A DNA stretch of 64,000 nucleotides from a virus. Where the stretch lies: the IMG/VR virus record IMGVR_UViG_3300044568_004364; one strand, given 5' to 3'. Positions within the stretch are counted from its first letter, which is position 1. The number at the start of each line of letters is the position of its first letter. Position numbers and translations under genes: made by a program. A model generated the notes under the pieces. It had not been told where the DNA came from and did not search any database. It saw only the letters and a program-made list of their open reading frames with translations. This document shows, piece after piece, positions 42,464 through 60,416 of the stretch.

Positions 42464-42568
42464 ATAGATTATTATATCAAAAAAATCGAAAATGTAAATA
42501 ACTTTTTTAGAAAAAAAGAGAGCAAAGATGACTCCCTGCTCTCTTAAAAGTGGTGCTATAGTTAGCGC

Positions 42569-43318: not shown

Positions 43319-43394
43319 ATACATAAAGAAAAAAGCCAAGGTATGTAATATACCTTGGCTCTCGTTAAATTTGTTGTTTTCCAGTGCACTATTG

Positions 43395-43631
43395 TTAATT
43401 GCCGTTTCCAATAATGATTGCTCTCCGATAGCTATAGTCGCTGTGATACTTTTCACCACGACCAGTGAGTATTCCCTCTTTAAACTGATATGTTACACCG
43501 TCACTTAGTGTTATCGTCTCGGGTGTATATAGCTGTGAGGAGTTGAGTCTTTCGTTTGATTCTTTTTGATAATCTCTCCAAGCGCAACTTACTGGCAGGA
43601 GAACCATCAGCGGCCAAACGATCAATTTCAT
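43395..43631 (-). CDS. Lipoprotein, o-spanin-like
   Basis: MKLIVWPLMVLLPVSC lipobox; overlaps the upstream membrane ORF out of frame. Confidence 0.55.
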   Translation of the reverse strand: MKLIVWPLMVLLPVSCAWRDYQKESNERLNSSQLYTPETITLSDGVTYQFKEGILTGRGEKYHSDYSYRRAIIIGNGN

Positions 43632-43734
43632 CTTCAAGTTCATCAATTTCGTTTTCACGTTTATTTTTAAGGTATTCAGCATATTGATTTGCAAGCGCTG
43701 TTATGGCAAGCAATAGTGCAGTAAAGACGTTCAT
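43501..43734 (-). CDS. i-spanin-like protein
   Basis: N-terminal hydrophobic helix plus coiled coil. Confidence 0.5.
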   Translation of the reverse strand: MNVFTALLLAITALANQYAEYLKNKRENEIDELEDEIDRLAADGSPASKLRLERLSKRIKRKTQLLTAIYTRDDNTK

Positions 43735-43735
43735 C

Positions 43736-43933
43736 TTACTTTTTTACACCTGTATCTTTTGCCTTGCCGATATTAAGAGCAATAAAATCAATTACAGCAT
43801 AAACCTTTGCAAGTTTAGTCCCAGGGGCTGGTGTTGGTGTAATGCTTGCAATTGCACTAGCTAATGATACCGCAGCAGTCACTACAGCAAACCATGGGTA
43901 ATTTTGGATTAGAGTTACGAGTTGTTCAATCAT
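43736..43933 (-). CDS. Holin-like membrane protein
   Basis: Hydrophobic helix, TPTP, ALNIGKAK; late promoter at 43971-43978. Confidence 0.55.
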   Translation of the reverse strand: MIEQLVTLIQNYPWFAVVTAAVSLASAIASITPTPAPGTKLAKVYAVIDFIALNIGKAKDTGVKK

Positions 43934-44087
43934 ATGTTTTTGTGGTTATTTGAGAATGATTTCTCAAACATATTTATACAAAAGCACAGCTTAATAGTCA
44001 CCATTTATTGATCGCCAAATTACGTCAACCAGCTTGATTAGCAGAATGGCGCACATGACCCACATCCAACCTTCAGAGACTGTAAAA

Positions 44088-46010
44088 TCAAATTTCATAG
44101 TTTATATATTGGTGCTCTAAGAGCGTATTGTTGAGAATTGACTTTAATTCAAAACCGCCGACGAATGGAACATTACCACCAATTGTGTTTATAATATTGC
44201 GTGGAACATTACTCAATGCTTTATGCAAAGGGTCATCATCGACGTGATCTGCAACATTCTTTTTTAAAGCAACACGCAAAAAATCAACATCACGCCACAC
44301 CGTGTTCCAAACACAAACTTCAATTGATTGCTTTGTCATATTCATAATCCTTTATCGCAATGCTAACTGAGTCATAAACTGAGCCATAAACTGAGTCTCT
44401 AACTGAGTCATAAACTGAGCCCCAAACTGAGACATAAACTGAGCCATGTACTGAGTCACGGACTGAGTTATTAACTGAGTCCCAAACTGAGCCGCTAACT
44501 GAGTTACAAACTGAGCTATATACTTCCTTTTCAATATTCATATTCTTGTATTGCAATGTCAACAGTGTTCCTAACTGAGTTACGAACTGAGCCCCAAACT
44601 GAGTTCCAAACTGAGTTAATAACTGAGATATTAACTGAGTCATAAACTGCACTATATATTTCCTTTTCAATATTCATACTCCCTTAGTGTAATATTAACA
44701 GAGTTCCTAACTGAGTCACTAACTGAGATACCAGCTGAGTTCCTAACTGAGTTCCTAACTGAGTCATGAACTGAGCCCCAAACTGAGACCCAAACTGAGC
44801 CATAAACTGAGCCATGTACTGAGTCACGGACTGAGTTATTAACTGAGTCATCTATTTCCTTTTCAATATTCATACTCTTCTATTTCACTCCGCAAATTGT
44901 CATCAACTGAGTCCCAAACTGAGACAAAAACTGAGTCATAAACTGAGTTATAAACTGAGTTATAAACTGAGTTATAAACTAAGTTACGAACTGAGCTACG
45001 AACTGAGCTACGAACTGAGTCATAAACTGCACTATATATTTCCTTTTCAATATTCATACTCCCTTAGTGTAATATTAACAGAGCTCTCAACTGAGCCATA
45101 AACTGAGACATAAGCTGAGACATTAACTGAGTCATGTACTGAGTTCCTAACTGAGTCCCAAACTGAGCCATGTACTGAGTCACTAACTGAGTCATAGACT
45201 GAGTCATAGACTGAGTCATAAACTATCTTACGAAGTGAGACATCAACTGAGCGATTAACTGAGTCATCGACTGAATAATATATTTCCTTTTTAATATCCA
45301 TACTCTGCTATGTGTGCTGCTAAATTATTGTACCGCCCAGCATCTCCTATAGAATCCTGAAACGAGTTACGAACACTATTATAAAGCGATATTGTTGGTA
45401 GGGTACCTGTTATTCTATCACCATTATCCAAAACATACTCCCATGTTGCAGACCATAGCTCTTGCCGCAAATCTTGTTTAATATCCATATTCTTTTATTT
45501 CACTCTTTATATTAATACCAACAGAAATGCCAACTGAACCAGCAACAGGCTGAGTGACCTTGCTACCAATCGTGGTGATAGGTAATATATGAACAGAATT
45601 ATATACTGTATCAAAAACTGAGCTACTAACTGATCTATTAACTGAGTTATTAACTGAGCCATCTATTTCCTTTTTAATATTCGTATTCATATTCTTTTAT
45701 TGTAATGTCAACAGTGTTCCAAACTGAGTTACGAACTGAGCCGCTAACTAAGTTCCAAACTGAGCTACGAACTGAGCTACGAACTGAGTCATAAACTGCA
45801 CTATATACTTCCTTTTCAATATTCATATTCTTTTACTGCAGCGTTAACAGAGCTCTCAACAGAGCTCTCAACTGAGCCATAAACTGAGATATCAACTGAG
45901 TCATAAACTGAGTTATTAACTGAGTCCCAAACTGAGCCGCTAACTGATTTTTCGACTGAGTTATTAACTGAGTCATAAACTGAGGTATATATTACCTTTT
46001 CAATATTCAT
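44088..46010 (-). repeat. Array of ~10 chained SVxx microprotein ORFs (45816-46010, 45674-45826, 45478-45690, 45291-45488, 45047-45301, 44863-45057, 44667-44873, 44531-44677, 44320-44541, 44088-44345)
   Basis: 12-bp unit TCAGTTnnnRnC; EYEY-stop overlaps MNIEKE start. Confidence 0.88.
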
Positions 46011-46014
46011 ACAA

Positions 46015-46054
46015 CAAAAAAGCGAGGAGCTTATTATAATACAAACTCCTCGCT
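46015..46054 (-). terminator. Intrinsic terminator between the DUF6745-like pair and the SVxx array
   Basis: AGCGAGGAG...CTCCTCGCT followed by a T run. Confidence 0.7.
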
Positions 46055-46074
46055 ATATCTATTTGTGTTAAAGC

Positions 46075-46407
46075 TTAGTCGCGAACTGCTCGCATGTTTT
46101 GTGCAAAGTGATCATACTCTTGTTGAATGCCAACTTCCCATACACCAGGAGGCATAGCGATAGCATCGTGACGATTAGCATGCACGCAACGCACCTGAGT
46201 AGGTTTAGAGTTGCGAATGAATGTACGATCGCCAGAGCGAAACACTTTAGTGCCTGCTACCATATCAACGACATGGTGATTGCCAGTCGTCTCACTGTCT
46301 GCAATAATATGCAGATCGTTGTTAGTAGGCTTAATTTCAACTGCATCTGCTGGCAGTTCTGCGGGGAACAACATGGCTTCGCCATGGAGGATTACGTTTG
46401 GTTTCAT
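46075..46407 (-). CDS. Conserved His-motif partner of DUF6745-like proteins
   Basis: HGE, ETTGNHH, H..H, PPG.W.V..QQEY...VRD. Confidence 0.7.
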   Translation of the reverse strand: MKPNVILHGEAMLFPAELPADAVEIKPTNNDLHIIADSETTGNHHVVDMVAGTKVFRSGDRTFIRNSKPTQVRCVHANRHDAIAMPPGVWEVGIQQEYDHFAQNMRAVRD

Positions 46408-46448
46408 ATCTATATTATAGTTTACTGTTTGTTAATTGCTAGGATTAT

Positions 46449-47429
46449 TTATGCGATTGTAGAGATGATCATATCACGTCCACCTAGACGTTGTTTGATT
46501 GCACTCACTAGATCTTTACAGTCTGGCGATACACCTTCAAAGTGGAAGATACTAGTAGTCTGATTGACCATGCTGAGATATGGCGCACTAGACAAGCCAT
46601 CAAAGATTGCTTCCATATCCCAGAGCTCGTATTGACTCTTGACCCACCACTCATATTCAGCACCAGTATAGTTCTGATAGGTATCAAGCAATTTGCCTAA
46701 GCTCTTGAAGCGTTCGATACCAGCCTTGCGCACAAACTCAGCTTTCACGTCAGCGTTTTGAATAGTCTTGTAGTACTCAAGATCCAACTTCTCTTCAGGA
46801 GTCACGGCAATATACTCTGGCACACGAACACCGTTGAGGGAATAGACCTTAAGGTCACCACGACCAGCATAAGTTAGCGCAGCTCCGCCATCACGATGCA
46901 AGCGATTCTCTTCATTGAGGAAGATTTCAGTAGGCTTCTCGCACACAATGGTATATTCTTCCATAGGGTAGATACAGCCAAGTTGCGCCGTTGCTTCCCA
47001 TGTCTTATACTTAGCGTAGAGCTCAGCGTCTACCTCCACCCCAACTTCTTCAAACATAAAGTCATAGAAGGAGAAGGTTGCAGCGAAGAATGAGCCACTC
47101 TGCCATGGGAGTTGTGCAGCGGGAATATCATACTTCTTAGTATTGCCATTGAAGACACTATCAAGCTCAGCATTCAAATTTTCAAAGCTTACATTAAAGT
47201 TGCTCAAGAGGTGACACGCAGCCCAAGCCTCCAATGGATTGTCAAGAATAATCAGCGGCACATCTACAGGACGGTTAATGAGCGCGCGATACTGATCAAC
47301 TGTCTTCTTGGTTCGAGTAGGATCAAGACGAGCAGTATCAGTACCAACCGCAATCCATTTTGCGACATATTCGGGCATCTTAGCTTCTTGCTCAGGAGTG
47401 AGCTTATCAATTTTTTGTTTTTCTGACAT
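46449..47429 (-). CDS. DUF6745-like protein
   Basis: KLTPEQEA...W; CEKP...RLHRDGGAA.TY...LNGVRVP...NA.VK. Confidence 0.7.
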   Translation of the reverse strand: MSEKQKIDKLTPEQEAKMPEYVAKWIAVGTDTARLDPTRTKKTVDQYRALINRPVDVPLIILDNPLEAWAACHLLSNFNVSFENLNAELDSVFNGNTKKYDIPAAQLPWQSGSFFAATFSFYDFMFEEVGVEVDAELYAKYKTWEATAQLGCIYPMEEYTIVCEKPTEIFLNEENRLHRDGGAALTYAGRGDLKVYSLNGVRVPEYIAVTPEEKLDLEYYKTIQNADVKAEFVRKAGIERFKSLGKLLDTYQNYTGAEYEWWVKSQYELWDMEAIFDGLSSAPYLSMVNQTTSIFHFEGVSPDCKDLVSAIKQRLGGRDMIISTIA

Positions 47430-47507
47430 AGTATGTTTATTTGTGAGAGTTTTCTGCATCGCGAAGAATGAAGATTAATACGAAAATTAGTATGATTGCA
47501 ATCATAG

Positions 47508-47699
47508 TTAGTATGCTTCAGAGTTGCTCATGCTTTTAAGATTAATACTTGGACGCTTGAGATATGTTTTGTTACGAATGTATTGATTAGCCTTTGCTTT
47601 TGGCTTGAATTGTACATCAGATACATCAACGCTTTTCACAGCTCCAAAACGGACTGACCAATTGCTTTTAACGACTTGTGTTTGTGTGTTTGTGTTCAT
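47508..47699 (-). CDS. Hypothetical early protein
   Basis: Behind the promoter at 47721-47749. Confidence 0.55.
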   Translation of the reverse strand: MNTNTQTQVVKSNWSVRFGAVKSVDVSDVQFKPKAKANQYIRNKTYLKRPSINLKSMSNSEAY

Positions 47700-48338
47700 A
47701 GTGATATTTGTTACAGATTTATTATATACGGTTAGTGTGAGTTTGTAAAATAAAAAATGAATCTTTTATCTTAGGAAATTTTGTCCCGGGAGATCACACG
47801 CGTGTGATCTCCCGGGACGAGGTAACCACACCTGAAATTTTATTTTCTCCAAGAGAAGCACATTCACGCAATCCTTGAAGATAACTTTCATAATTATTTT
47901 CGTTTAGGAAAGGATGCGCTGCTGAACCCAGTTCCAAGTAGCATATTCCGCTTGTAGAGTTCATCAGCAATTTGCCGCTCGATCCATGACTGTGATTTGA
48001 AAATGTTTGCTCCATACTTTGGTTGTTTGCGTTTGAATGTTAGCTTAATTTTTTGCAGGATTCGTCGGATCATATTATGCGCGTTGTTATTTTGTTAGGT
48101 GTTTTACTCCAATCATGTAGCATTCAGCTTTTGTATTTGCAAAGGCGCTAAGCTCAATTTCATTGCCATCTATGATGGTGATTTGCCATTGAGGCTTTCC
48201 GCCAATGACAGCTGCCGAATTTGAAACGGTGATTGTCATCGAGCCATAGGTGTTTGTGTAATATCCTCTCGATATCTTGTTTAAGTTAAGAGTAACGGTG
48301 TGGATATTCATAAACTGTGTGGTACTGGCTACAAGATT

Positions 48339-48396
48339 ATTATACACTAAAAAACGCTGCTTGTAAATAAAAAAATGAAGAAAAATGCATTTTTTT
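48339..48396 (-). promoter_or_regulatory. Early promoter
   Basis: TTTACA-N17-TATAAT plus conserved upstream block. Confidence 0.8.
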
Positions 48397-48731
48397 CACA
48401 AAAAATCGTTTGAGGCGTCTCCAAGAGCATCATGCCGCGGACTTTTCTGCAATTCGTTCTTTAGTTCACCATAGGTGCGAGCTTCACTGGTGAATGCATT
48501 GTGGATGAGATCATTTATATTAAACGATAATTGAGCAACCTCGTTTTCATTTTCATCAAAGATAGAAGCATAGCCTGCGCATGGATTTTCAACATCCAAA
48601 AAGTCAAATGCATAGTGCATCATTACACAACCACAACTATCTCTATAATGATTGTGCGCCATATTCACTGCGCGTTCATCATCTTGTGAGATGATATAGT
48701 TTCGCAGTTCTTCAAATGTTATTTTTTCCAT
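48396..48731 (-). CDS. Hypothetical protein
   Basis: ORF in operon. Confidence 0.6.
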   Translation of the reverse strand: MEKITFEELRNYIISQDDERAVNMAHNHYRDSCGCVMMHYAFDFLDVENPCAGYASIFDENENEVAQLSFNINDLIHNAFTSEARTYGELKNELQKSPRHDALGDASNDFL

Positions 48732-49104
48732 TGTGTATTTTTATTTGTGTGTTATGAAAGGAGGCAGCCTCAACAATCCAAAAGAGGCCATTATCGTCAA
48801 GATTAAATCTTTCGGTTATATTGTTGAGCAGCTCATATGAGGAGCTCATGCGCACAGCCTCGGCAATTTGAAAACATTCGGATGGCAGCCGAATCATGTC
48901 ACGTTTGTTAATTTTTACAGTGTTCATATTCTCTTATTTCGCTGATGATTGAAGCTCGTACTTGAAAGTCAACAGGATACCAAACATCGGTGTGTAAGGA
49001 GCTAGGAAGATTACTAGCAGACAATCCGTCAATGCAAACACCGCTAAATGCATATAGCAAGTCGTTTAAGATGGATGATCCTGCTATTTCATATTTGATG
49101 TTCA

Positions 49105-49422
49105 TCATAGTTTACACTTTAAATCATAAGCATTTTTAACGCCCTCTGGTAATGGGATTCTCACCTCCTTATCAATACTCTGAATAACATCAGCCTCATC
49201 AACAATAACCGTGATACGTCCAGTGTAGCTGTCAAGAGTCACCATGCCTGTTGAGACACGAATTGCTGTTGGCTCTAATGATAGGACATAAGCGAGTGCA
49301 ATGTCATTCCATACTTTGCCATAGAGTTCAGGCAAAACACAAACATTTGTGTATGAATAGATGTCCTCCTTTTGAGGCACTGCATGATGATATACTTTAA
49401 AATCTTCTGGTTTATTTTTCAT
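49105..49422 (-). CDS. Peptidase-inhibitor I78-like protein
   Basis: IRV..GMVTLD....RITV.VD...I pattern. Confidence 0.5.
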   Translation of the reverse strand: MKNKPEDFKVYHHAVPQKEDIYSYTNVCVLPELYGKVWNDIALAYVLSLEPTAIRVSTGMVTLDSYTGRITVIVDEADVIQSIDKEVRIPLPEGVKNAYDLKCKL

Positions 49423-49428
49423 ATTTTA

Positions 49429-49641
49429 TTAAAATTCAACGGGATAAAGAATGACTGCCCATCCAGCTTTACTTCCACACTCTGGACAATCACAATGCGC
49501 AAATTCATAATGTTCGCGAGGACAACTTTCAACAACTCCGAGTCTTACGGTTTCATCTGTATCTTCAAACTCTGAGTCGCAATGTCGACATGTTCCACGC
49601 CAGATTCTTTTGTGTTTATTACCCGCTTTGATTAGTTTCAT
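49429..49641 (-). CDS. Small zinc-ribbon protein
   Basis: CxxC...CPEC. Confidence 0.6.
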   Translation of the reverse strand: MKLIKAGNKHKRIWRGTCRHCDSEFEDTDETVRLGVVESCPREHYEFAHCDCPECGSKAGWAVILYPVEF

Positions 49642-49874
49642 AATTGACCTTCTTTACCAAAGACTAAATTCATTAAACGTATTTGGTCAGTTGCTTCTTG
49701 TATTTCTACAGAATCTATCACGACATCATCTTGATCACAAACACGAAAACGATAAGGCTGCGCATTTGCCAATTCTACAATCGGCATGAGATAACGACGA
49801 TAATCACCCCTCGTCCATGTTACTCCACCATCATCAGAATATTCGTAATAATAAAATTTATGTTTCATAGTTGT

Positions 49875-50255
49875 TTAAGTATTTCCAAATTCGTCGTAAT
49901 ATAAATCCCCGCACGGTCCACCACCGTGCCACACTCCTGCACCATTCGGATAAACAGTATGAGCTTCCCATACATCACCATATTTGTGGTAGATACGGGT
50001 GCCTATTTCTGCTCCAGTGGCATCACAAACAGGTGAGCCATGATCTTTAGGTCGACTATCATAATGGGCTTTATAATAAGCATCATACTCTTTTTGTGAT
50101 TGTTCAATAAATCTACGAGCGCGAGGAGACAATGGTTTCTCAACCTGATCTTCACTAAACAATGGAGTGCCATCATTCATTCGAGCTATTGCCTTCTCGC
50201 CTTTGAGAATTTTATAACCGCGTTGCGACCATTCATTAAAGCTGCGAAGTTCCAT
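49875..50255 (-). CDS. Hypothetical protein with ArdC-like N-terminal motif
   Basis: SFNEW...G..I.KGEKA...LF..DQV. Confidence 0.55.
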   Translation of the reverse strand: MELRSFNEWSQRGYKILKGEKAIARMNDGTPLFSEDQVEKPLSPRARRFIEQSQKEYDAYYKAHYDSRPKDHGSPVCDATGAEIGTRIYHKYGDVWEAHTVYPNGAGVWHGGGPCGDLYYDEFGNT

Positions 50256-50308
50256 ATTTCTTATATTGTCGAATGTTCCAAATGATTAGTGGAATGTGAA
50301 TGCAAAGA

Positions 50309-51067
50309 TTAATTGCCGCATAGCTCCCTAGCCTCCAAAATGAGCTCTGCCGCAAGATTTTCGTTAAAATCATAGCGCAATTTGCTGCCGTCCATGACAA
50401 GATTTAGCTCCGCAAAGCTATCAGATACCAGCTTCTCAAGAGTCTCACAGGTGTATGATGATGGATTTGTTTTGATGTCAAGCAGCAGCATATGAAACTC
50501 TGTTCCAAAATCCGCAACATTTACCACATACTCTCCAGATTCAAAAAAGCGTTTACCCACTTCACATAGCCGTAAGATTTGAACAAAGTTCTTTGGAGAA
50601 AAGCCATAGTGTTGCACCGCATCTTTGCGCTTGCCGCCAAGACGACCACTGCGCTCACCCGTTGCAAGTTTTAATTCGCTATAGACATAACCGCGCAAGC
50701 TATTTTTCAAAACTTCAGTGTTGATTAAGCTATAGCGAAGATGATATAATTCAATCATAAACTTAGAACGATAAGTGAATGACTCCAATGGAGCAAACAA
50801 TATTTCCATGACTTGAGTATTGCTCTTGCGCAGCAATGACATATAATGGCCAATCTCATAATATGTTGCGTCGTGTGGTGAGTTTGTAACAATATTTGTG
50901 ATTGTATGTAACCCACTCTTATGCAGGGGAGCGCGTGCAACAAAGAGACCGCGATAGTCAACATCAGAGTCAGCTGTCGCCAATCCATAAAGATTGCTAC
51001 CACCTACAAGACTGCACAATAGACTAGAGTCATATTTGATAAAACTAAGATGTTCTTGGATATTCAT
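50309..51067 (-). CDS. Pol-beta-family nucleotidyltransferase (NrdC.11-like)
   Basis: GSNLYGL....SDVDYRG, N....EILF. Confidence 0.85.
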   Translation of the reverse strand: MNIQEHLSFIKYDSSLLCSLVGGSNLYGLATADSDVDYRGLFVARAPLHKSGLHTITNIVTNSPHDATYYEIGHYMSLLRKSNTQVMEILFAPLESFTYRSKFMIELYHLRYSLINTEVLKNSLRGYVYSELKLATGERSGRLGGKRKDAVQHYGFSPKNFVQILRLCEVGKRFFESGEYVVNVADFGTEFHMLLLDIKTNPSSYTCETLEKLVSDSFAELNLVMDGSKLRYDFNENLAAELILEARELCGN

Positions 51068-52053
51068 ATTTTTCCTTCGTTATAATTCTTCTTACTTCAA
51101 GAGCTATATCCCCACAAAGTATATTGTCAATTTTGAATCCTATCGAATCATATACGCTAGTGCTTATGTATGGTGTGGTTTGATCTGCTGCTGTTTGTCT
51201 ACATTCACTCTGTACACACTTCCACACATGCTCATACAGAGCTTCATTTATTGCGTATCCTATATTCATATTCTACTATTGTAGCGTTAACTGTGTTCAT
51301 AACTGAGTTCATAACTGAGTTCCAAACAGAGCGATGTATTGAGTTCCAAACTGAGATATCAACTGAGTCATAAACTGAGTTATTAACTGAGTCCCAAACT
51401 GAGCCGCTAACTGATTTTTCGACTGAGAGATCTATTTCCCGTTTAATATCCATATTCTTTCATTGTAGCGTTAACAGAGTTCTCAACTGAGCTCTCAACT
51501 AAGTTCCAAACTGAGCCATGTACTGAGCTCCAAACTGAGTTACTAACCGAGTCTCTAACTGAGCTACGAACAGAGACATGTACTGAGACATGTACTAAGC
51601 TATGTACTGAGTCCCAAACAGAGTCCCAAACAGAGTCCCAAACAGAGACCCCAACAGAGACCCCAACAGAGTTCCAAACAGAGACCCAAACAGATTTCAA
51701 TATTTTTTCTTCAGTAGTCATAATTATATTCTAGCATCTGCGCATTAACAGAGTCCCTAACAGAGACCCTAACAGAGTTCCAAACAGAGTTCCAAACAGA
51801 GACCCCAACAGAGTCCCAAACAGAGTTCCAAACAGAGTTCCCAACAGAGACCCCAACAGAGACCCCAACAGAGACCCAAACAGATTTCAATATTTTTTCT
51901 TCAGTAGTCATAATTATATTCTAACATTTGAGCATTAACAGAGTCCCTAACAGAGTCATAGACTGAGCCATGTACTGAGTCACTAACTGAGCCATAAACT
52001 GAGCCCCAAACAGAGACATTAACTGAGAGATTTATTTTATCGTTAATATTCAT
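51045..52053 (-). repeat. Second array of 5 chained SVxx microprotein ORFs (51901-52053, 51711-51911, 51443-51721, 51244-51453, 51045-51269)
   Basis: 12-bp unit TCWGTTnnnRnC with overlapping stop/start junctions. Confidence 0.88.
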
Positions 52054-52055
52054 AT

Positions 52056-52367
52056 TCAATCCCAGTTCCAGCGGTTACCACTTTTTGTTGGAGCGTCAAG
52101 CGGAATAGCGTCATAGTCGGCGACATTCAATGCATCGCGAGTTGCTGCACGATTCTTACTGTTATGCTCGTCCTTTGTGCTTTGATTAATATTAGTTGCA
52201 CGCTTATTGTCATGCGTATAGCAACGTGCCAATTCAATAAGCTTACGAGGCGTATATTCTTTGTAATCACTCCAGCTAAAATGGAGAACATTGAAGTTAC
52301 CGGAGTCGAGCTTGACTACTTTCCACTTGTTACGCTTAATGATTTGTATTGCTTCAGACGTGTTCAT
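52056..52367 (-). CDS. Hypothetical protein
   Basis: ORF in early operon. Confidence 0.6.
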   Translation of the reverse strand: MNTSEAIQIIKRNKWKVVKLDSGNFNVLHFSWSDYKEYTPRKLIELARCYTHDNKRATNINQSTKDEHNSKNRAATRDALNVADYDAIPLDAPTKSGNRWNWD

Positions 52368-52379
52368 AATTATATGATA

Positions 52380-52670
52380 TTAGTGTTTGTTTGTTCGAGC
52401 TGCTTGTTTGCGACCACCGCGAGAGCGAGAGCATTGAGCATAGTCAGACCAGTTGGCAAGCTTACTCTCCCAGCGCAACAAGTCGCGGCAAGCAGCTCCA
52501 ATATGCGCCTTGCCTCGGCAGCGATTCTCAGCATTGAGCGCTCCATTCAGGAATACTCGGCAACCATAGACTCCTCCACCAAGGTGAGTAACCTTAACAG
52601 TGTGCTCGACGTGACGTTGCATTATGCGAATCGGAGAGATGTGTTGCCAGAATGTGTAGTGTGGTGTCAT
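52380..52670 (-). CDS. Hypothetical protein
   Basis: Repeated leader upstream of the ATG. Confidence 0.6.
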   Translation of the reverse strand: MTPHYTFWQHISPIRIMQRHVEHTVKVTHLGGGVYGCRVFLNGALNAENRCRGKAHIGAACRDLLRWESKLANWSDYAQCSRSRGGRKQAARTNKH

Positions 52671-52693
52671 AATGATATTGTATCAGAGTTCGT

Positions 52694-52942
52694 TTAATCT
52701 TTGAGTGCTTTGAGTGCTTTGAGTGCTGCATCGTTGTTGCTGAATGTTCCAACTGGAGTGACGAATGCTCCATAGTTGGCAAGTATCTCAGCATGCTTAA
52801 CATAGTGAGTTACCTGACCATTGCGGACACGGAAGCCAATCCAGCGAGCTTGATACACTCCATCCTTTTTAGTCTTAGCCTTCTCTTGAATGAAGAGACG
52901 ATTGGCTTGGTTGAGCTGGCCGTAGAAAATGTGTTCTTTCAT
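52694..52942 (-). CDS. Hypothetical protein
   Basis: Repeated leader upstream of the ATG. Confidence 0.6.
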   Translation of the reverse strand: MKEHIFYGQLNQANRLFIQEKAKTKKDGVYQARWIGFRVRNGQVTHYVKHAEILANYGAFVTPVGTFSNNDAALKALKALKD

Positions 52943-52964
52943 AATGATATTGTATCGGAGTTAG

Positions 52965-53198
52965 TTACCAACTTGCTGCAGTTTGGTAGCCGCATTCATA
53001 TTTGAATTTAGCGTAATCGCGAATGAAGTCTTCAAAGCTATCATAGCGCGCACACCATTCAAAAGACTTACCGTGGACACGTGAGTAAAAACAATCATAA
53101 TCCTCAACATTACACATCCGTTCGACTGTGTGGGAGATGCTCTCAATTGCAGCGATACGTTTAAGGATCGCGATTTCTTCAGGAGTTACTTTGGTCAT
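52965..53198 (-). CDS. Hypothetical protein
   Basis: Repeated leader upstream of the ATG. Confidence 0.6.
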   Translation of the reverse strand: MTKVTPEEIAILKRIAAIESISHTVERMCNVEDYDCFYSRVHGKSFEWCARYDSFEDFIRDYAKFKYECGYQTAASW

Positions 53199-53396
53199 AA
53201 TGATATTGTATCAGAGTTCGTTTAGCCGCGGTACTTCAAACGGATGAAGACATCTTTGTTGTCTTCCATGATATCAGCGAGCAGCTTCATGCAGTAGTCA
53301 ACCCAAGCCTCTTGAGTGATCTCGCCTCTTTGAACGGCGGCGAACATTTCGTAGTATTCTTTATTATCGGTCATGATGTGATTTGGTTACAAGATT

Positions 53397-53456
53397 ATTC
53401 TACCACAAAAATGCACACTTGTAAATAAAAAAATGCGAAAAAATGCATTTTTTTCA
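53397..53456 (-). promoter_or_regulatory. Early promoter
   Basis: TTTACA-N17-TAGAAT plus conserved upstream block. Confidence 0.8.
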
Positions 53457-53482
53457 CAAAAATACTCCTTGGGGAGACTTTT

Positions 53483-53710
53483 TTAGTCCTTGATGCGCCG
53501 TGGGCCACGCAGTGGACGAGGCGGTAGCTGTTCTTCAATGTAGCGACATGCCGCAGAGCTTAAGACTTCATCTCCGCAAGAGTCACACTTATGAACAGGC
53601 ACATTCTCCACAACATAGTTTTGTCCTTCGACCGTTTTGTCGAACTTCTGATATTCGACACGCAGAGTGCCGTCGCAATCAAAGCAAGGGATGTCTTGTA
53701 AATGTTTCAT
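53483..53710 (-). CDS. YgiT-type zinc-finger protein
   Basis: CxxC...VENVP..KCxxCG. Confidence 0.75.
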   Translation of the reverse strand: MKHLQDIPCFDCDGTLRVEYQKFDKTVEGQNYVVENVPVHKCDSCGDEVLSSAACRYIEEQLPPRPLRGPRRIKD

Positions 53711-53842
53711 AATTTTCGTCGTCTTCAAGTCTAACAGATGATTGGATCAAGCTTTCGTGTAGTATCTCGTTGCCTTCATCATCATATTCGTATCTTTCCC
53801 AATATCCACATTCGTCATCACCAATTTGATTTTCCATGGTAG

Positions 53843-54187
53843 TTACTGAGGTTTGGGCGTGGTCGGAGTGGCGCTCTCGCCGCGTGCCTCACCTTGTGCG
53901 TTCGGCTCAGAATAAAGGTCATCCAGTTCGCCGTGATCGGGGCAGTAGTAATACGGCTTACCGTCCCGCCAGTTGATCGAGGACTCCACACAGCACACGG
54001 GGCAGAGATTGCGCGGGTATGCCGTGCCGATCATGTCTTCGCAGCGACAATGCCACTCGTCCAGTTCGTGGTATTTTGCCCATGCTTCCATCACTGGTTG
54101 AGCCACCGCAAGAAGCCGAACAAGTCGCGGCAGATCAACCGCCTTGTTGCTGGTGTTTTGGGTATCGTTTGGCAATTCAGAGTTCAT
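53843..54187 (-). CDS. Cassette-borne Cys-rich hypothetical protein
   Basis: Both termini translated from attC arms. Confidence 0.65.
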   Translation of the reverse strand: MNSELPNDTQNTSNKAVDLPRLVRLLAVAQPVMEAWAKYHELDEWHCRCEDMIGTAYPRNLCPVCCVESSINWRDGKPYYYCPDHGELDDLYSEPNAQGEARGESATPTTPKPQ

Positions 54188-54240
54188 TGGTGTTTTGGTC
54201 GTTTGTTTGGTTGTAGATCGGCGGTGTCTGCGCTGTGGCG

Positions 54241-54438
54241 TTAGCCAAGAAATTCCTCGGGGCGGATGATGTTTTCACCAGGGTCATCGCTTCCGCAGTG
54301 GCAGCAGACATACCCGTTTCGGATTACTCGCCCGCAATGGTCGCATTCGACCAGTTCGGGGCATTCCCCGATTACGGTTTCCATGAGTTGTGCAAGCCAT
54401 TGGCGGCTACCTGTTTTTAGTTTGCGGAGTTTCTTCAT
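54241..54438 (-). CDS. Cassette-borne zinc-finger microprotein
   Basis: CDHCG...CCHCG; stop codon lies in the R' core. Confidence 0.65.
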   Translation of the reverse strand: MKKLRKLKTGSRQWLAQLMETVIGECPELVECDHCGRVIRNGYVCCHCGSDDPGENIIRPEEFLG

Positions 54439-54604
54439 AATTCGTAAGAGGCTAACAAGTGAATGCTGGCAACGGCGGGAAGTTGCCTGTTTGGTTTATT
54501 CGGAGTCCAGCGCCCGCCGCGCCAGATCTTTGTCGTTCGGCAGAGAACTCGCAGCCTTGCTATTTTCTCTTCTCTGTTTTTGTCTGTCATTTCTTCGAGA
54601 CCAG

Positions 54605-54802
54605 TCATGAGTTTATTTCAGTTGTTCTATGGTCTCCGCAATAGCACCAATGATACCTCATGGGGGTTCTTTTCCCGATAATGATTGTGCATCCGAGATT
54701 CCATTTGTGGACGTGTCCTTTTTGAATGCTTTTCTTGTTAGACCTTCCGTTTCTTCGCTGACGACGTATCTTTGTGATTGTTTTCTTGAGGTGTTGGTTC
54801 AT
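54605..54802 (-). CDS. Cassette-borne basic His/Cys microprotein
   Basis: HVHKW...CYCG. Confidence 0.55.
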   Translation of the reverse strand: MNQHLKKTITKIRRQRRNGRSNKKSIQKGHVHKWNLGCTIIIGKRTPMRYHWCYCGDHRTTEINS

Positions 54803-54870
54803 TTTATTGTTTGTTGTTCCGAACATTCCGCATCAAGCAACGCTGGGCGTGCCTGTGCTTGGCTGTTGTG

Positions 54871-55230
54871 CTAATAAAGGTTCTCGCTGAACAGCCGCTC
54901 GCCATCGCCCCCGCAGCGTCGACGGACTTGGTTCTGATCGACGGCGACGATCCACGCTTCTTCACGGGTCATCCAGTCCCCGAACTGATCCACGAATCCT
55001 TGATCCCATGCTTTGAAGTCGTGACCCATAGCATTGGCTTGCACCCTCATGAGCTTGTCCCAGTGCCGAGCACCGCAGATGATTAGCAGCTTGTTCACAC
55101 GGTGCCGATTAGCAGCGCATACCACGCGGCGAGGGGTCTTTGTGTAGTCGGGCTTCCACTCGGGTTCGGAAGAAGCACCACAAGACGGTGAGCCCAACGA
55201 ATCGGGCGGTGGAGTTGGTTTTGTATTCAT
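54871..55230 (-). CDS. Cassette-borne conserved phage protein
   Basis: VVCAAN..GARH...QGFVDQFG..MTREEA...LFSENLY. Confidence 0.75.
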   Translation of the reverse strand: MNTKPTPPPDSLGSPSCGASSEPEWKPDYTKTPRRVVCAANRHRVNKLLIICGARHWDKLMRVQANAMGHDFKAWDQGFVDQFGDWMTREEAWIVAVDQNQVRRRCGGDGERLFSENLY

Positions 55231-55895
55231 GATCTTTTCTCGCCCGATTCGTGGGCTACCTCGACGTTAGCTCCAATAATCGGCCATCCCATATCAGCCA
55301 CAAGACTCTCGGCCTCCTCCTTAGTTGGTAGCGCATCCATCCAGAATCCGTCCTCCAACGTAATCGCCCACTGGACATCTCCCGTCTCGTCGGTTTCGTA
55401 TATTTCCACGGGTTCCCCTGCTCGTCGAATCGCCTCCTTGTATCCCGTGGGACATTCCTTGAGGAACCGAATCGCCCAAGAAGAGCTAACAAGGTGGTCG
55501 AGGACAACGGGCGGGGCGGTGTGTGTCGAAGTTTCCATGTGCTTAGAGAGTTTATGAGGTATCGGAGTGGCGCTTTCCGCCCGTGCCTCACCTTGATCGT
55601 TCGCCAAAGAAACAAGAACGTCCCCGTGGCAGGCTTGCGGAGCGCACCAGCACCCCAACACTTTTCCGCGCAGTTCATGCAGCGCAGCCATGAGATGCGG
55701 TTGAGTTACTACCCATTCACGGTATTTTCGGATCACGGTTTCCCGGTCGCCGTCCTTCCCAATCTCAAACGGGTTTCCCCATTTCGACGGCCTGCCGATA
55801 CACACGTCATGCTTCGACCGTTTGCAGTGAACCACAAATGGCGAACAAGGCGGTGGAGGACAACAGCCTCCCGTTGGGTCTTTTGGTGTATTCAT
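55227..55895 (-). CDS. DUF4326-like protein fused in frame through an attC to the next cassette ORF (second start at 55538)
   Basis: IGRPSKWGNPF...LRGKVLGCWCAPQACHGDVL. Confidence 0.8.
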   Translation of the reverse strand: MNTPKDPTGGCCPPPPCSPFVVHCKRSKHDVCIGRPSKWGNPFEIGKDGDRETVIRKYREWVVTQPHLMAALHELRGKVLGCWCAPQACHGDVLVSLANDQGEARAESATPIPHKLSKHMETSTHTAPPVVLDHLVSSSWAIRFLKECPTGYKEAIRRAGEPVEIYETDETGDVQWAITLEDGFWMDALPTKEEAESLVADMGWPIIGANVEVAHESGEKRS

Positions 55896-56170
55896 GATTT
55901 TTTGTCGGGACTCTGTAAGTCACCTTGGGCGTTGTGCTGAATAAATTCGTGCGGGAACTCCTCGCTGAATCCGTAGTGTTCCCTGAACTCTTCCCCCGTC
56001 ATCGGATCGTTTCTTGCAGCCATCAATCCGTCTGTGGTATCAACCGTTCTCAGGACATATCTGCGTTCCATCCTGTTGCGGTCGATAGTGACCACAAAAG
56101 GCCACCCGTCAAAATCAACGGCACAACAAGCCGCATCACGCAACCCGCTGGAAGTCTGTTCTTTATTCAT
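55892..56170 (-). CDS. Cassette-borne hypothetical protein
   Basis: Start and stop inside attC loops. Confidence 0.6.
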   Translation of the reverse strand: MNKEQTSSGLRDAACCAVDFDGWPFVVTIDRNRMERRYVLRTVDTTDGLMAARNDPMTGEEFREHYGFSEEFPHEFIQHNAQGDLQSPDKKS

Positions 56171-56474
56171 GGTTTTGAGTGGGCGGGTGCGTGTGCTTTG
56201 CGTTCGGCAGCGATGCCATCACATCGACGTTCGGTGAAGAAATTACAACGAGCACGCCACACAGTCCCGCCATCCATCCAACGGACAGTCCGAGGGCAGC
56301 AGCGCACCATGCAACTAAGTCAGCATGACCGCCTAGCCCGTATGTGAATACAGTGATTCCACTGAGCAAGGGCGTGCAGATTAGCGAAGCCGCTAGGTTA
56401 TTCCAAACACACCGAACAAGTCGCTCCTGAGCAACCGCGCCCGCCGTGTTATTTGAGTCTGATTCTGTTTTCAT
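56163..56474 (-). CDS. Cassette-borne two-TM membrane protein
   Basis: Two hydrophobic segments. Confidence 0.6.
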   Translation of the reverse strand: MKTESDSNNTAGAVAQERLVRCVWNNLAASLICTPLLSGITVFTYGLGGHADLVAWCAAALGLSVGWMAGLCGVLVVISSPNVDVMASLPNAKHTHPPTQNHE

Positions 56475-56510
56475 ATTGTTGTAAATTGAACATGTCGATA
56501 CAGAACACGG

Positions 56511-56777
56511 CTATTGCCGCTCCTGATCTTGCCTGTTCGGCAGACAATTATTACATTTGGGCTTTCCACTAAAAACACGCCACCCAGCAGACCACGCCTG
56601 TTCCACGCATTCAGCCTTGGTCTTACAGTAAAACCCCTCACCACCGCACCCGCTTTGGCAGAAGATTCGCCACTCACGCATTGTTCCTCCATTGTAATCT
56701 TTGAAGGTTAAGTGCGGAATCAAAGAAGCCGAACAATTCGTGAGAGGCAACGCCTCGGAGTCTGTTGGTGTATTCAT
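56511..56777 (-). CDS. Cassette-borne zinc-finger protein
   Basis: C.SGC...GW...CNNC. Confidence 0.6.
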   Translation of the reverse strand: MNTPTDSEALPLTNCSASLIPHLTFKDYNGGTMREWRIFCQSGCGGEGFYCKTKAECVEQAWSAGWRVFSGKPKCNNCLPNRQDQERQ

Positions 56778-56782
56778 AGTCG

Positions 56783-57088
56783 TTATTGGCGTGCCTCCAC
56801 AGAGGCGTTCGCTGAATCGTAATTGCGGAACTCTGGAGTGCCGCGCCAGTTCCATTCGCGGTAGGTTTCATCAGCACCCACGGGGCAGTTGAGCCACATG
56901 CAGGAGTAGCAAGGTTCCTCGACGTGGACATGCGCCCAAAGACCTCCGTAGAGGCGACGATACCACTCATGGTTCCCAAGAAAACATGCAAACCAGCCCC
57001 AGCGAACAAGGCGGCGCATCCATTCGGTCCAAATGGCTTGGCGAGATTTGACGCTCTTTAGTGTTTCAACTCGTTCTTCGCTGATCAT
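56783..57088 (-). CDS. Cassette-borne Trp-rich hypothetical protein
   Basis: RRLVR and NASVEAR segments derive from attC arms. Confidence 0.6.
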   Translation of the reverse strand: MISEERVETLKSVKSRQAIWTEWMRRLVRWGWFACFLGNHEWYRRLYGGLWAHVHVEEPCYSCMWLNCPVGADETYREWNWRGTPEFRNYDSANASVEARQ

Positions 57089-57283
57089 AATATAAGTTTA
57101 ATGTTAACCCCAAAGAATTGATTTCATAAGTTCCCAACGCTGACGAAGCAATTCGGTATATTCAAATAGTTGATCTTCGTCGAGACACTCAATATTGTTC
57201 AATTCGCGAATACGTTTTTCAATAAGATTAAATTCAATTTCTTCGTTGATCATAATATATAGTGTTATTTGAGTTACGAGTTC

Positions 57284-57664
57284 TTAGAGCAGATTTTGTT
57301 CCATATATTCCTCACATGTGGGAATAGTGTTTCGGTATTGCTGCAGATCGGCAATAAGCATATCCAGTGATTCTCTGTTATGCATCTCAGGTGTGTTTAG
57401 GCAAAGATCTACAAATTTTAAAATTTGTTCCGAGATTTCTTCGTGTGAAGGGAGAGAGCAATACGCCACGATGAAGAAGTCTTCTTCCTTGCATTCGAGT
57501 GTATCATTTGCACCAGTCAAGCCAAAGCAGTAATTATTCCAAGGACATTTGATGTTCCAATATTCCTCTCCGCCTTTCTCGAAAAGAGTTACGACATATG
57601 CCGTGGTGCCCCAATGAACGGTTTTGCCTTCACGAACTGCTTGCTTAATTTCTGATAGATTCAT
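57284..57664 (-). CDS. Hypothetical early protein
   Basis: MNLSEIKQAV..GKTVHW; first gene behind a promoter. Confidence 0.65.
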   Translation of the reverse strand: MNLSEIKQAVREGKTVHWGTTAYVVTLFEKGGEEYWNIKCPWNNYCFGLTGANDTLECKEEDFFIVAYCSLPSHEEISEQILKFVDLCLNTPEMHNRESLDMLIADLQQYRNTIPTCEEYMEQNLL

Positions 57665-57686
57665 AATGTGGTTTGGTTACATGATT

Positions 57687-57715
57687 ATTCTACCATAAAA
57701 ACACATACTTGTAAA
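57687..57715 (-). promoter_or_regulatory. Early promoter upstream of the cassette array
   Basis: TTTACA-N17-TAGAAT. Confidence 0.78.
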
Positions 57716-57742
57716 ACAAAAAATGATGAAAATGTGAAAAAA

Positions 57743-57776
57743 GTGAAAAACCTATAGATACGTATAGGTTTTTCAC
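57743..57776. terminator. Long hairpin, probable terminator
   Basis: GTGAAAAACCTATA...TATAGGTTTTTCAC. Confidence 0.6.
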
Positions 57777-57800
57777 TCTGTAAAAACCGCCTAAAACGGC

Positions 57801-58457
57801 TTAATGATGATCAATTGCAGCTTTTTTTCGGCCTGAGAGAATGGTGTCCACCTCTTCAACCGTGAAAAATGCACTCTTGTTATATGAGAGAGTGTTTTCA
57901 ATTCCACAATCAAGGATCGGCCCGTAAATGTCATGTACACTGTGATGTGCATTAATACCTTTGAGCGAGCCATGGCTATGTCCACAGAGTGTAACTGCAC
58001 CGCGGCCTAGCTCAGGCCATACAAGCGGACACATATGTGTAAGATAGTAACGACGTGAGTCAACATGCAGCATCGCAGAGTCTCCAAGCATTGTCACATT
58101 GTGAGTAATCCGCAGCGGATAAATTTCACAGCTCTTATATTCATCAGGCAGTGCTGCATCATAAAGCTGTTTAACACCGCTGTTATGATTACCCCAGACC
58201 ATAAGTGTTTCGCATTTAAGGCTACGAACAAGTTCAGCAATAGAGTCTGGTCCGATACTCAAACCAACATCGCCCAATACCACAAGCAGGTCATCGCTGT
58301 GCAGTGTCTCCAATTGGTCAATGAGCCATAGTGCATGCTCACGTGCGCTGTTGAATCCGCGTTTGGCATAGACAAAATCTTTATCATGGCCAAAATGCAG
58401 GTCACTGCAAAACTTGATGTTGTGATAGTCTTTACGATTTTTCTTAATTCGAATCAT
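57801..58457 (-). CDS. Calcineurin-like metallophosphoesterase
   Basis: SDLHFGH, LGD, GNH, GHSH. Confidence 0.9.
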   Translation of the reverse strand: MIRIKKNRKDYHNIKFCSDLHFGHDKDFVYAKRGFNSAREHALWLIDQLETLHSDDLLVVLGDVGLSIGPDSIAELVRSLKCETLMVWGNHNSGVKQLYDAALPDEYKSCEIYPLRITHNVTMLGDSAMLHVDSRRYYLTHMCPLVWPELGRGAVTLCGHSHGSLKGINAHHSVHDIYGPILDCGIENTLSYNKSAFFTVEEVDTILSGRKKAAIDHH

Positions 58458-58713
58458 GATTATTTTTCATTAGGATTGTACAATGGTTTAAGCGCCGACT
58501 AAATTCAGCGCGTGTCAATGGAGCTTCAAGTGGTGTATCATCCATGCGCCATCCGTCAGGATCTATGATTGCAGAGACATGCTCAAACTCAGAATCTTTC
58601 AACCATTGCTCTGCAGTCTTCTTTGCGAAGATAGCATCCCAGCCATCGCGATAGCTTTGAGTCGCCACACGAGATGCGATGCTATCTCCAGTAATATCAT
58701 TTTTAGTTGCCAT
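58444..58713 (-). CDS. Hypothetical protein
   Basis: KNDITGD..Y..GWD.IF and IDPDGW motifs. Confidence 0.65.
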   Translation of the reverse strand: MATKNDITGDSIASRVATQSYRDGWDAIFAKKTAEQWLKDSEFEHVSAIIDPDGWRMDDTPLEAPLTRAEFSRRLNHCTILMKNNHDSN

Positions 58714-59812
58714 AATTTTCTAATAGAGTAAGCATTGCATTTTTAAGTTGACGCTCTTCAATGGTCTTGCCAACGAAGAGAGTGAATGCCAATCCACTGC
58801 GCCAATCAGGATAATTCGCTTGCACAAGCAGCGCAAAGTTCTTACGATAGTCTGCTGCAGTGGAGTCATGGGTTGAATGATATACAGAGATGAAGCGGAG
58901 CAGTTCACGATGCGCAGCTTCAAACTCGTGATATGCCGATACTATAGCATGCATTTCATCGCTAATCTTTTCTGCAATCTCGTAGTCAAGAGTAGACTCA
59001 ACATACTTATAAAAGGCTTCAACACTAGCATATCGTTCAGGCGCTGCAAGCCATAAGTCAAGTACATTCTTAACACCCTTCACACCAGTTGCAACACGAT
59101 GCAACATTAGATAGGCTTCGGCCTTAATCTTTTTCATTGTCTGAAAGTCAGGTGAATAGATCACTACACCTTCTTTGCCAGTCCATGCTTCAACATCACG
59201 GATACATTCTTCAATGCTGCTATAATAATATGGAGTTGGTCGTGGTACATCGAGCAAAAATGAGACGACATCAACATTAGCTTGAGTCATATATTCTGCA
59301 GTATCGTTTGCCACAGCGCCAAGCATAGTGAGAGTCGGCTCGTCATGCTCCCGCAAGACAATGATATTTGAAGGAGTAGTCCATTCAAAGAGCAAGCTCC
59401 ATTCTTTCAAGTATGGATTAATCTTGTCAAAGACTCGTGGATATTTACTCATTAGGACTTCAATCTCGTGTCCGTTTGGCAATTGGCGTGCGTCAACAGT
59501 ACCACGAGTGCGAACAATAAGCTCATCCTTATAGCGCGAAACAATAAGCAAGCTACCATCCATCTTGTGACGTGCTTGTATTGGCCATGAAGAATCCCAA
59601 GGTTGAAAGTCTGGCTTTTCGCCATAGTTCACAAACTTGCCAAAGCCTTGAGAGACAACAGCACCATCAGATACACGGACAATTGCACTACGATAGCGTG
59701 CATTGCCGTCATTCCATGTGGTACCCATATCATTTGGAGTCACGAGAAAAAAGTCTTCTTTTAGTGCACCAATCTTGACTGGCTTGATATTAAATTCTTC
59801 AGAGTTGATCAT
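58703..59812 (-). CDS. rnlA: T4 Rnl1-like RNA ligase
   Basis: KFVNYGE, KMDGSL, FEW, EGVV, KIK. Confidence 0.88.
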   Translation of the reverse strand: MINSEEFNIKPVKIGALKEDFFLVTPNDMGTTWNDGNARYRSAIVRVSDGAVVSQGFGKFVNYGEKPDFQPWDSSWPIQARHKMDGSLLIVSRYKDELIVRTRGTVDARQLPNGHEIEVLMSKYPRVFDKINPYLKEWSLLFEWTTPSNIIVLREHDEPTLTMLGAVANDTAEYMTQANVDVVSFLLDVPRPTPYYYSSIEECIRDVEAWTGKEGVVIYSPDFQTMKKIKAEAYLMLHRVATGVKGVKNVLDLWLAAPERYASVEAFYKYVESTLDYEIAEKISDEMHAIVSAYHEFEAAHRELLRFISVYHSTHDSTAADYRKNFALLVQANYPDWRSGLAFTLFVGKTIEERQLKNAMLTLLENYGN

Positions 59813-60416
59813 AGTATGTAGGAGATTAGAGTGATGATTGCGGAGACTAGGGTTAGAGATAAAGCACATGCTTTAATATATTCTGTGCGAAGGACGTCAG
59901 CATAGCGACGATTGCGATTGCCTTTAAGATTAAGGCCTAGAGCTTTTCTACGAAGTATATCAGTGTTCATAATTTTTACGGCAGAGTGTTCGTTTTTCTT
60001 TTTTCTTTTTGTCAGTGTAAGAGACCACAGGCGGAGCAAAAAGATGACGTGCCAATTTGCGCAATGCGATTGGGCTATAGTCAAATGTTTTGGTTTTGAT
60101 CTTTTTCATATAAAGGTAATTAGGCGGCTAGTGTTGCTTTGTAACACTCATCGCTTACGCGCATGGCGAGTTCATCACCATCGCAGAAGCACACTCCAGA
60201 TGAGCGGCAAATTCCATCCTTGTCGATCCATTCTTTTCCAAGAATGTATTGATCTTTTCCGTTGTGATTTTTTCCGTTATAAACAAAAACGCATATTCTA
60301 TATAAGCCTTGTTCAAGACTTAAGACTTGGCCTACTTTGCAGTCAGAGATTTTGACTTCTTCGAGTGCGGGACGAGTGGTGGTGAATTTGTATTGGATCA
60401 TATTGGTTACAGATTT

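Follow-up and report, generated by a model that had tools for sequence, protein, structure and literature searches.

The DNA analysed here is a 64,000-nucleotide stretch (hereafter the window, to which all coordinates refer unless a contig is named) of the IMG/VR virus record IMGVR_UViG_3300044568_004364. At ~53840-57060 it contains a 3.2 kb island that is probably a genuine integron-type array of the CALIN kind (cluster of attC sites lacking integron-integrases), with ten gene cassettes, nine full attC recombination sites resembling those of aadA cassettes, and two half sites. The host record is a linear contig of 100,774 bp with an estimated completeness of 51% (CheckV). It encodes a helicase, ribonucleotide reductase and an Rnl1-like RNA ligase, carries nearly all of its genes on the minus strand, and has a virion protein with 42% identity to the counterpart in T4-like cyanophages, e.g., S-RIM8. 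The array is sited in the hyperplastic early region of this T4-like lake phage. Its GC content (51-55%, against ~39% for the backbone) is matched by no other stretch in the 100,774 bp. Exchange of accessory genes in the form of integron-style cassettes seems to take place in some phages.

The island was present in at least 20 lake-water metagenome runs from 2017-2024. Logan contigs of other runs cross both borders with no differences: on the left at 53581-54273 and 53300-53954 and on the right, in three runs, at 56732-57149, 56807-57126 and 56932-57284. These bridging contigs date from runs of 2017, 2020 and 2024. Because independent lake contigs bridge both junctions, the island is not chimeric. 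Parts of the island that lack contig cover in runs X21 and X24 were not counted as absent. Megablast and blastn searches of the region against the phage collection gave no match.

Complementary core sites

The motif GTT occurs in all ten R' cores, and AAC in nine of the ten R'' cores (the exception is CAC). A sequence-only reading of this DNA, made before the present analysis, had listed twenty 7-mers as core sites, and all of them are where it placed them. Paired across the genes that they flank, they form eight perfect reverse complements and two pairs that match at 6/7 positions. When cores were permuted among the cassettes the mean was 1.3 perfect pairs, and 0 of 200,000 shuffles reached eight. 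The two cores within a single hairpin agree at just 2-6 of 7 positions. A match that is better across a body than within a hairpin is as predicted by recombination at G|TT. Complementary cores around each body mark it as a cassette that has in the past been circularised and then re-inserted at G|TT, with the TTnnnn of its head formerly paired to its own R''.

Geometry of the hairpins

In attC_aadA1 of plasmid R100, the 5' arm on the coding strand consists of R'' (TCTAAC), the spacer AATTC, GTT, a bulged C, AAGCCG, a bulged A and CGCCGC. After the loop and the return arm there is a spacer, TCAAGC, and then R' (GTTAGAT). This canonical layout recurs on the plus strand of at least six of the nine sites in the window: the spacer has 5 nt and is followed by 3 bp, a bulge, 6 bp and then a bulged A, which lies within CAAC. 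The bulges of these sites are always on the 5' arm of the plus strand, and the same pattern was found in other array loci. The plus strand is the attC top strand, with R'' (nnnnAAC) at the 5' end and R' (GTTnnnn) closing the 3' arm. The stem of the cassette 7 site is a canonical example (GCA, bulged T, CACGC, bulged A, ACCCGC, pairing with GCGGGTGCGTGTGC), and the unpaired spacer of the cassette 9 site, AATTC, is identical to that of attC_aadA1.

Because Rfam has no attC family, we built a covariance model (R2) from phage hairpins alone. A single site with a hand-set structure was used as the seed, since MAFFT alignments of the hairpins were structurally inconsistent, and the model was then iterated. 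On the whole record R2 gave seven matches, all within the island and all on the plus strand. It also matched attC_aadA1 of R100 (43.8 bits, E 2e-7) and attC_aadA2 of a Klebsiella plasmid (41.9 bits), in both cases on the coding strand and directly after the open reading frame (ORF). Five related T4-like records gave no R2 match, nor did 364 kb of bacterial DNA. An Rfam scan of the island returned no attC family and no relevant match. The term CALIN requires two or more attC sites in a place that lacks intI; here, 7-8 model matches and further sites occur within 3.2 kb. Bulge geometry, R2 matches and the complementarity of flanking cores together support the attC identity first proposed from the letters of the window.

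Among 39 sites collected with the model, 93.7% of cells pair, compared with 64.8% after shuffling and 33-41% with slid partners, and changes on both sides occur at 15 of 18 pairs overall and at 12 of 13 pairs of the inner (L) helix, figures that come from a model-fitted alignment and are somewhat inflated. A scanner for AAC...GTT hairpins gave noisy output at low thresholds and failed to detect the site whose core is mutated; it was used for the display of arm geometry only. Exact-pattern scans of viral and genome contigs for one hairpin subtype found nothing.

Layout of the array

Nine full hairpins of 54-132 nt are present in the island, as the sequence-only reading had described. Its series of cassettes also stands; the ends of the array are shown here to be half sites (53831-53906 and 57001-~57030). 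From left to right, with hairpins on the plus strand and ORFs on the minus strand, the components are:

53831-53906, plus strand: left half site (a0), comprising a loop remnant, the L' arm and the R' core GTTCGGC; the R''/L'' arm is absent.
53901-54240: cassette 1, body 53907-54114, attC 54115-54246 (132 nt), cores GTTCGGC/GCCGAAC (perfect); ORF 54187 to 53843, minus, 114 aa, Cys-rich, with its loop ATG 66 nt upstream of R'' and its stop 57 nt beyond R'; R2 57.2 bits.
54241-54535: cassette 2, body 54247-54449, attC 54450-54541 (92 nt), cores GTTAGCC/GGCTAAC (perfect); ORF 54438 to 54241, minus, 65 aa, zinc-ribbon-like, with its ATG in its own body and its stop TAA within the core; R2 43.6 bits.
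54536-54865: cassette 3, body 54542-54817, short attC 54818-54871 (54 nt) of canonical bulge geometry, cores matching at 6/7; possible ORF 54826 to 54605, minus, 73 aa; R2 20.7 bits, E 0.05.
54866-55266: cassette 4, a gene of the T4_Y16D family, attC 55175-55272 (98 nt), R'' mutated (GCACCAC); ORF 55230 to 54871, minus, 119 aa, PF26092 / phrog_839.
55267-55599: cassette 5, body 55273-55483, attC 55484-55605 (122 nt), cores GTTAGCT/AGCTAAC (perfect); ORF from loop ATG 55538 to 55227, minus, 103 aa, its stop overlapping the next start (ATGA); R2 31.3 bits.
55600-55931: cassette 6, a DUF4326 gene on the minus strand from ATG 55895, attC 55840-55937 (98 nt); product PF14216 (E 5e-28), phrog_464.
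55932-56202: cassette 7, body 55938-56120, attC 56121-56208 (88 nt), cores GTTGTGC/GCACAAC (perfect); ORF 56170 to 55892, minus, 92 aa; R2 64 bits.
56203-56229, plus strand: 27-bp mini-unit between the R' cores GTTCGGC (56202) and GTTCGGT (56229), with a small CGATG/CATCG hairpin.
56230-56535: cassette 8, body 56236-56410, attC 56411-56541 (131 nt), cores GTTCGGT/ACCGAAC (perfect); ORF 56474 to 56163, minus, 103 aa, hydrophobic, probably a membrane protein.
56536-56807: cassette 9, body 56542-56727, attC 56728-56813 (86 nt), cores perfect; ORF 56777 to 56511, minus, 88 aa, Cys-rich.
56808-57088: cassette 10 and right half site, body 56814-57000, R'' AGCGAAC 57001-57007, L'' to ~57030, cores perfect; ORF 57088 to 56783, minus, 101 aa.

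The left half site has, from 53831 on, ~80% identity to the right half of the site at 55484-55605, and the GC step is at 53840. The ATG in its loop (53835-53837, minus) is now the start codon of a low-GC phage ORF (53679-53837). The right half site has no L'/R' arm. There, a low-GC leader extends up to ATG 57088, and GC content drops over 57020-57080. The sequence-only reading had ended the seventh site at 56229. The closing core is in fact GTTCGGC at 56202-56208, which leaves the 27-bp mini-unit, possibly what remains of a cassette that is empty or has decayed.

The body of cassette 3 has 41% GC, compared with 48-57% in the other nine; the units of the pool are therefore of mixed origin. Cassette 6 lacks an in-frame stop: its frame runs through the hairpin into cassette 5, forming a 222-aa frame (55227-55895, minus). 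This is either a natural fusion or a junction at which a stop was lost.

Coding polarity and translation starts

All of the ORFs are on the minus strand, antisense to the attC top strand, and they do not have the standard polarity of cassettes. This polarity was calibrated on the attC sites of aadA1 and aadA2. Eight of the ten ORFs start at an ATG in a hairpin loop, 43-81 nt upstream of R'', and read through L'' and R'' into a body that lacks a start codon, so that their products begin with a leader of 14-27 residues. The T4_Y16D and DUF4326 bodies are examples; ordinary members of these families start ~20 residues later. The core is read in two frames, with its G at codon position 1 (cassettes 1, 5, 8 and 10) or position 2 (cassettes 4, 6, 7 and 9). 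Seven ORFs stop 24-66 nt past R', in the next hairpin, and several of these stops overlap the next start as ATGA.

A scan limited to sigma-70-type consensus sequences identified five promoter-like sites in 4.4 kb, with 4.1 expected. None are in hairpins, and only one (54590-54562) is inside the array. Phage promoters to the right of the array would drive read-through transcription, with coupled translation, and the coding polarity suits such transcription from the phage side. In all other phage loci the model matches are also antisense to the genes; thus, the reversed polarity belongs to the cassette pool and not to this array alone.

Where the cargo can be identified, it is from protein families of phages (T4_Y16D / phrog_839 and DUF4326 / phrog_464), which bears out the earlier suggestion that it is phage-like. 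Phage-family cargo, reversed polarity, starts internal to attC and the lack of attC beside bacterial homologues (see below) argue for a pool that evolves in phages and not in bacterial integrons. Integrons are usually seen as bacterial devices; the cassettes of this island seem to be made for the phage way of life.

Cassettes shared among phage-like contigs

Beyond the window, the T4_Y16D body turns up in five contexts, with a nucleotide identity of 79-96%. It is carried by a phage-like contig of 57% GC and three shorter contigs with the same gene (L002-L005, 96% identity), by a 9.7-kb contig of 57% GC with 16 model matches (L006), by a T4-like contig of ~40% GC that has its own GC-rich islet (L007), and by a contig of 55-60% GC (L011, Ga0194063_10011086). 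On one side, a five-way alignment shows all copies becoming alike precisely at GTTGTGC. On the other, the T4_Y16D attC is common to the window, L006 and L011, with divergence right after GTT (TTAGCT, TTCGGC and TTATGT). The T4_Y16D cassette with its attC is thus a G|TT-bounded unit in three different arrays. A scan for the edge of this cassette had no result in viral contigs; in metagenome contigs it picked out one, L011.

The linkage of body and hairpin is not strict, as differing hairpins lie beside shared bodies in L002, L007, L015 and L016. In L002 and L007, unrelated hairpins lie beyond GCACAAC-AAG next to the T4_Y16D body. Elsewhere, the DUF4326 body has at least eight different leaders and at least eight different tails. 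It is flanked in L016 (60% GC, phage-like) by a hairpin 92% identical to the second site of the window, and in L015 (38% GC, T4-like) by hairpins 92-94% identical to the ninth. Hairpins 78-94% identical to window sites adjoin other genes in these two contigs. The array belongs to a cassette pool common to phage-like contigs of 38-60% GC in freshwater metagenomes.

Variation was also found in contigs that represent the array itself. A junction in a lake contig leads from GTT at 54865 to the core at 55931, skipping cassettes 4-6. One lake contig has cassette 10 and the phage flank intact and a different sequence before 56807. Loose contig ends on the R' side are at 54537, 54867 and 54869. The cassette reordering that the sequence-only reading had proposed is therefore seen in contigs as natural reassortment, both in the contexts of T4_Y16D and in the skipping of cassettes 4-6.

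One unit of L011 contains a complete transfer-messenger RNA (tmRNA) gene (L011:3166-3586; RF00023, 121 bits, 3182-3552 minus), located between attC-type hairpins at 3075-3172 and 3580-3701. Its cores, GTTATGT/ACAGAAC, match at 6/7, and its polarity is that of the protein-coding cassettes. In this case the gene packaged in cassette form seems to be one for an RNA.

Recombinase, entry of the block and alternative explanations

Several observations weigh against an integron-type origin of the island through IntI. No integrase, attI or cassette promoter (Pc) was found, so that we infer the action of IntI on the phage, and the record is 51% complete. The outer borders are within hairpin loops, at neither G|TT nor attI. 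The variable core bases (GTT-C/A/G-G/T-G/C-Y) are unlike GTTRRRY. R2 gave no match on the attC sites of dfrA12, gcuF, aac(6'), ereA2, arr and aac(3); the resemblance is thus confined to attC of the aadA subtype. The site at 56411-56541 is degenerate: its hairpin folds, but R2 misses it at E<=1. The covariation counts come from the model-fitted alignment described above. Finally, many natural breaks are at or near R'' or inside a hairpin arm. The second flank of the DUF4326 body in L016 is a chimera of the sixth and eighth window sites, with the break within a hairpin arm, and loose contig ends occur at or near R'' (54449, 56727, 55169, 54807 and 56105). Breaks on the R'' side and within hairpins are unpredicted by bottom-strand IntI recombination. 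The breaks at G|TT that the sequence-only reading expected among relatives were found, and its expectation that breaks would be confined to that position did not hold.

The integrase was sought in several ways. There was no PF00589 or TIGR02249 match, and no tyrosine recombinase was detected, across the 100,774-bp record, 51% of the estimated genome, in agreement with the sequence-only reading, which had an integrase missing from view. A tblastn search with IntI1 found nothing in the record or in any array-bearing locus searched. Five T4-like relatives were also examined, of which three are at least 90% complete; there was no PF00589 match in any of the five, and none has such hairpins.

The complementarity of the cores, the one-sided bulges and the G|TT-bounded recurrence of units point to an IntI-type tyrosine recombinase, which would have made and moved the cassettes by acting on folded attC DNA. 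The enzyme would act in trans, and a host integron integrase would be the simplest source, because the record and its near-complete T4-like relatives encode none. The location of the borders in loops suggests that the block entered by another route than G|TT; this would have been a non-IntI event in the hairpin loops. The exchanges on the R'' side and within hairpins may reflect top-strand recombination, or short-homology recombination by the phage machinery.

A further-reaching reading, a little less likely than not, is that freshwater phages keep a reverse-polarity cassette pool of their own, in which attC serves both as a recombination site and as a module for translation starts that supplies the ATG, the leader and the stop of the preceding gene. 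Bodies and hairpins would reassort at both cores, through use of both strands or a non-IntI enzyme, and units, including a tmRNA, would cross between T4-like myoviruses of ~39% GC and unrelated phages of ~57-60% GC, with no phage-borne integrase.

It is possible, if rather doubtful, that the hairpins derive from attC but are now shuffled without any integrase, by phage recombination at short conserved stretches or at extruded cruciforms. The stretches would be the core with AAGnCG on one side and GCGTT with the core on the other, in a manner similar to the promoter early stem-loops (PeSL) of T4-type phages. Breakpoints on both sides of hairpins and within them would follow naturally, as would island borders in loops at start codons and a hyperplastic region that varies among relatives (15 kb here, 5.4 kb in L001), and no recombinase was found in the record or in three T4-like relatives that are at least 90% complete. 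Homology, however, leaves unexplained why the variable core bases around bodies are complementary, and why one-sided bulges and stem covariation are kept over 39 sites. The PeSL form of this explanation also has to contend with hairpins that lack promoter-like sites above chance.

The phage, or the GC-rich phages of the pool, might instead encode their own cassette recombinase outside the sequence examined. The 51% completeness of the record leaves room for such a gene, but we consider this unlikely given that PF00589 is absent from the record and from five T4-like relatives, three of them at least 90% complete, and that the tblastn search with IntI1 was empty in all array-bearing loci searched.

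A one-off illegitimate uptake of a block from a bacterial chromosomal integron, now a static passenger, is quite improbable. It would fit a GC content 12-16 points over that of the backbone and borders inside hairpins rather than at G|TT. Set against this, the identifiable cargo is in phage protein families, and all cassettes are antisense, so that the Pc of a bacterial integron would not express them. Moreover, the same cassettes and hairpins have other neighbours in several phage-like contigs, population variants break at cores, and there is no attC match beside 23 bacterial DUF4326 homologues. An assembly chimera, with a GC-rich bacterial fragment joined to a phage contig, could produce the sharp GC step at both borders but is exceedingly improbable for a stretch that is found in at least 20 lake-water runs (2017-2024) and whose two borders are spanned, without differences, by Logan contigs of other runs.

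Comparison with known systems

Clusters of attC sites in phages were reported in a single prior study, as short arrays read as a route for transport of bacterial cassettes. In 10,705 phage genomes, 17 integrase-less attC clusters were found, each with at least two predicted attC sites; two phage arrays had the orientation typical of bacterial arrays, and five of six phage attC sites tested recombined with attI1 via IntI1 (Qi et al., 2023; Front Microbiol, PMC9892861). The island shares with these clusters the attC-bounded small cassettes in lytic phages with no intI nearby. It differs in having ten cassettes, a T4-like phage as host, antisense ORFs that start in attC loops, cargo from phage families, and cassettes that recur in other phage-like contigs. 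The start codons in loops, the antisense ORFs and the phage-family cargo are new relative to the published phage clusters. A literature search turned up no report of attC arrays from T4-like phages, nor of reversed cassettes whose starts are within attC.

The sites have in common with aadA-type class 1 attC the AAC/GTT R box, an unpaired spacer of 5-6 nt and the layout of 3 bp, bulge, 6 bp and bulged A. Whereas the R100 attC follows its ORF on the coding strand, coding here is on the bottom strand. The loops are longer (sites of 54-132 nt) and contain ATG and stop signals, and the core bases are not RRRY.

As in sedentary chromosomal integrons (e.g., the Vibrio superintegron), the array is long, its cassettes are small and mostly of unknown function, and its attC sites are related. 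Some cassettes of chromosomal integrons are inverted too. Unlike those systems, this array is inverted as a whole, is hosted by a lytic phage and has no intI, attI or Pc that we found, and its expression must come from the far end.

Modular shuffling by PeSL in T4-type phages was reportedly described by Arbiol and colleagues in 2010 as driven by homology, with an early promoter beside a stem-loop. The resemblance to that system lies in the small ORFs of a hyperplastic region, bracketed by repeated stem-loops and swapped as modules between phages. The attC geometry, the G|TT core complementarity and the lack of a promoter signal above chance set the island apart.

If an integrase acts on these sites, cassette exchange is a mechanism of rapid turnover of accessory genes in T4-like hyperplastic regions, and host integron activity is tied to phage evolution. 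If none acts, the attC-shaped hairpins serve another recombination system. Either way, the sites are natural material for the study of attC strand choice and cassette genesis.

Bacterial homologues and neighbouring genes

At none of 23 genomic loci that encode DUF4326 homologues, from Terrimicrobiaceae, Planctomycetota and other groups, did R2 find an attC match. A contig of a Terrimicrobiaceae metagenome-assembled genome (L098:6560-7100) has a DUF4326 gene with 88% identity to that of cassette 6. It retains a GTTCGCC core and a hairpin-type leader; the downstream core has decayed (GTCGAAA), and there is no model attC. This gene, on a contig that was binned as bacterial, resembles a fossil cassette.

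The bacterial T4_Y16D homologue P0055 adjoins an RNA-ligase/phosphatase gene, not an array. In bacterial chromosomes (L012-L014:7545-10297), a T4_Y16D homologue directly follows a gene for a fused kinase-phosphatase-RNA-ligase, an association that hints that T4_Y16D may act with RNA repair. In the phage, genes for a phosphoesterase and the Rnl1-like RNA ligase are ~0.7-1.6 kb from the array (57801-59869).

The nearest relative of the record, L001, is syntenic with it on both sides of the variable region and has no island. The hyperplastic region of small ORFs extends over 15 kb in the window (42463-57801) and over 5.4 kb in that relative (L001:10657-16052). Just outside the array, the Rfam family tsr25 matches weakly at 57739-57882 (minus; 28 bits, under the gathering score), over a strong terminator-like hairpin that is probably a terminator only.

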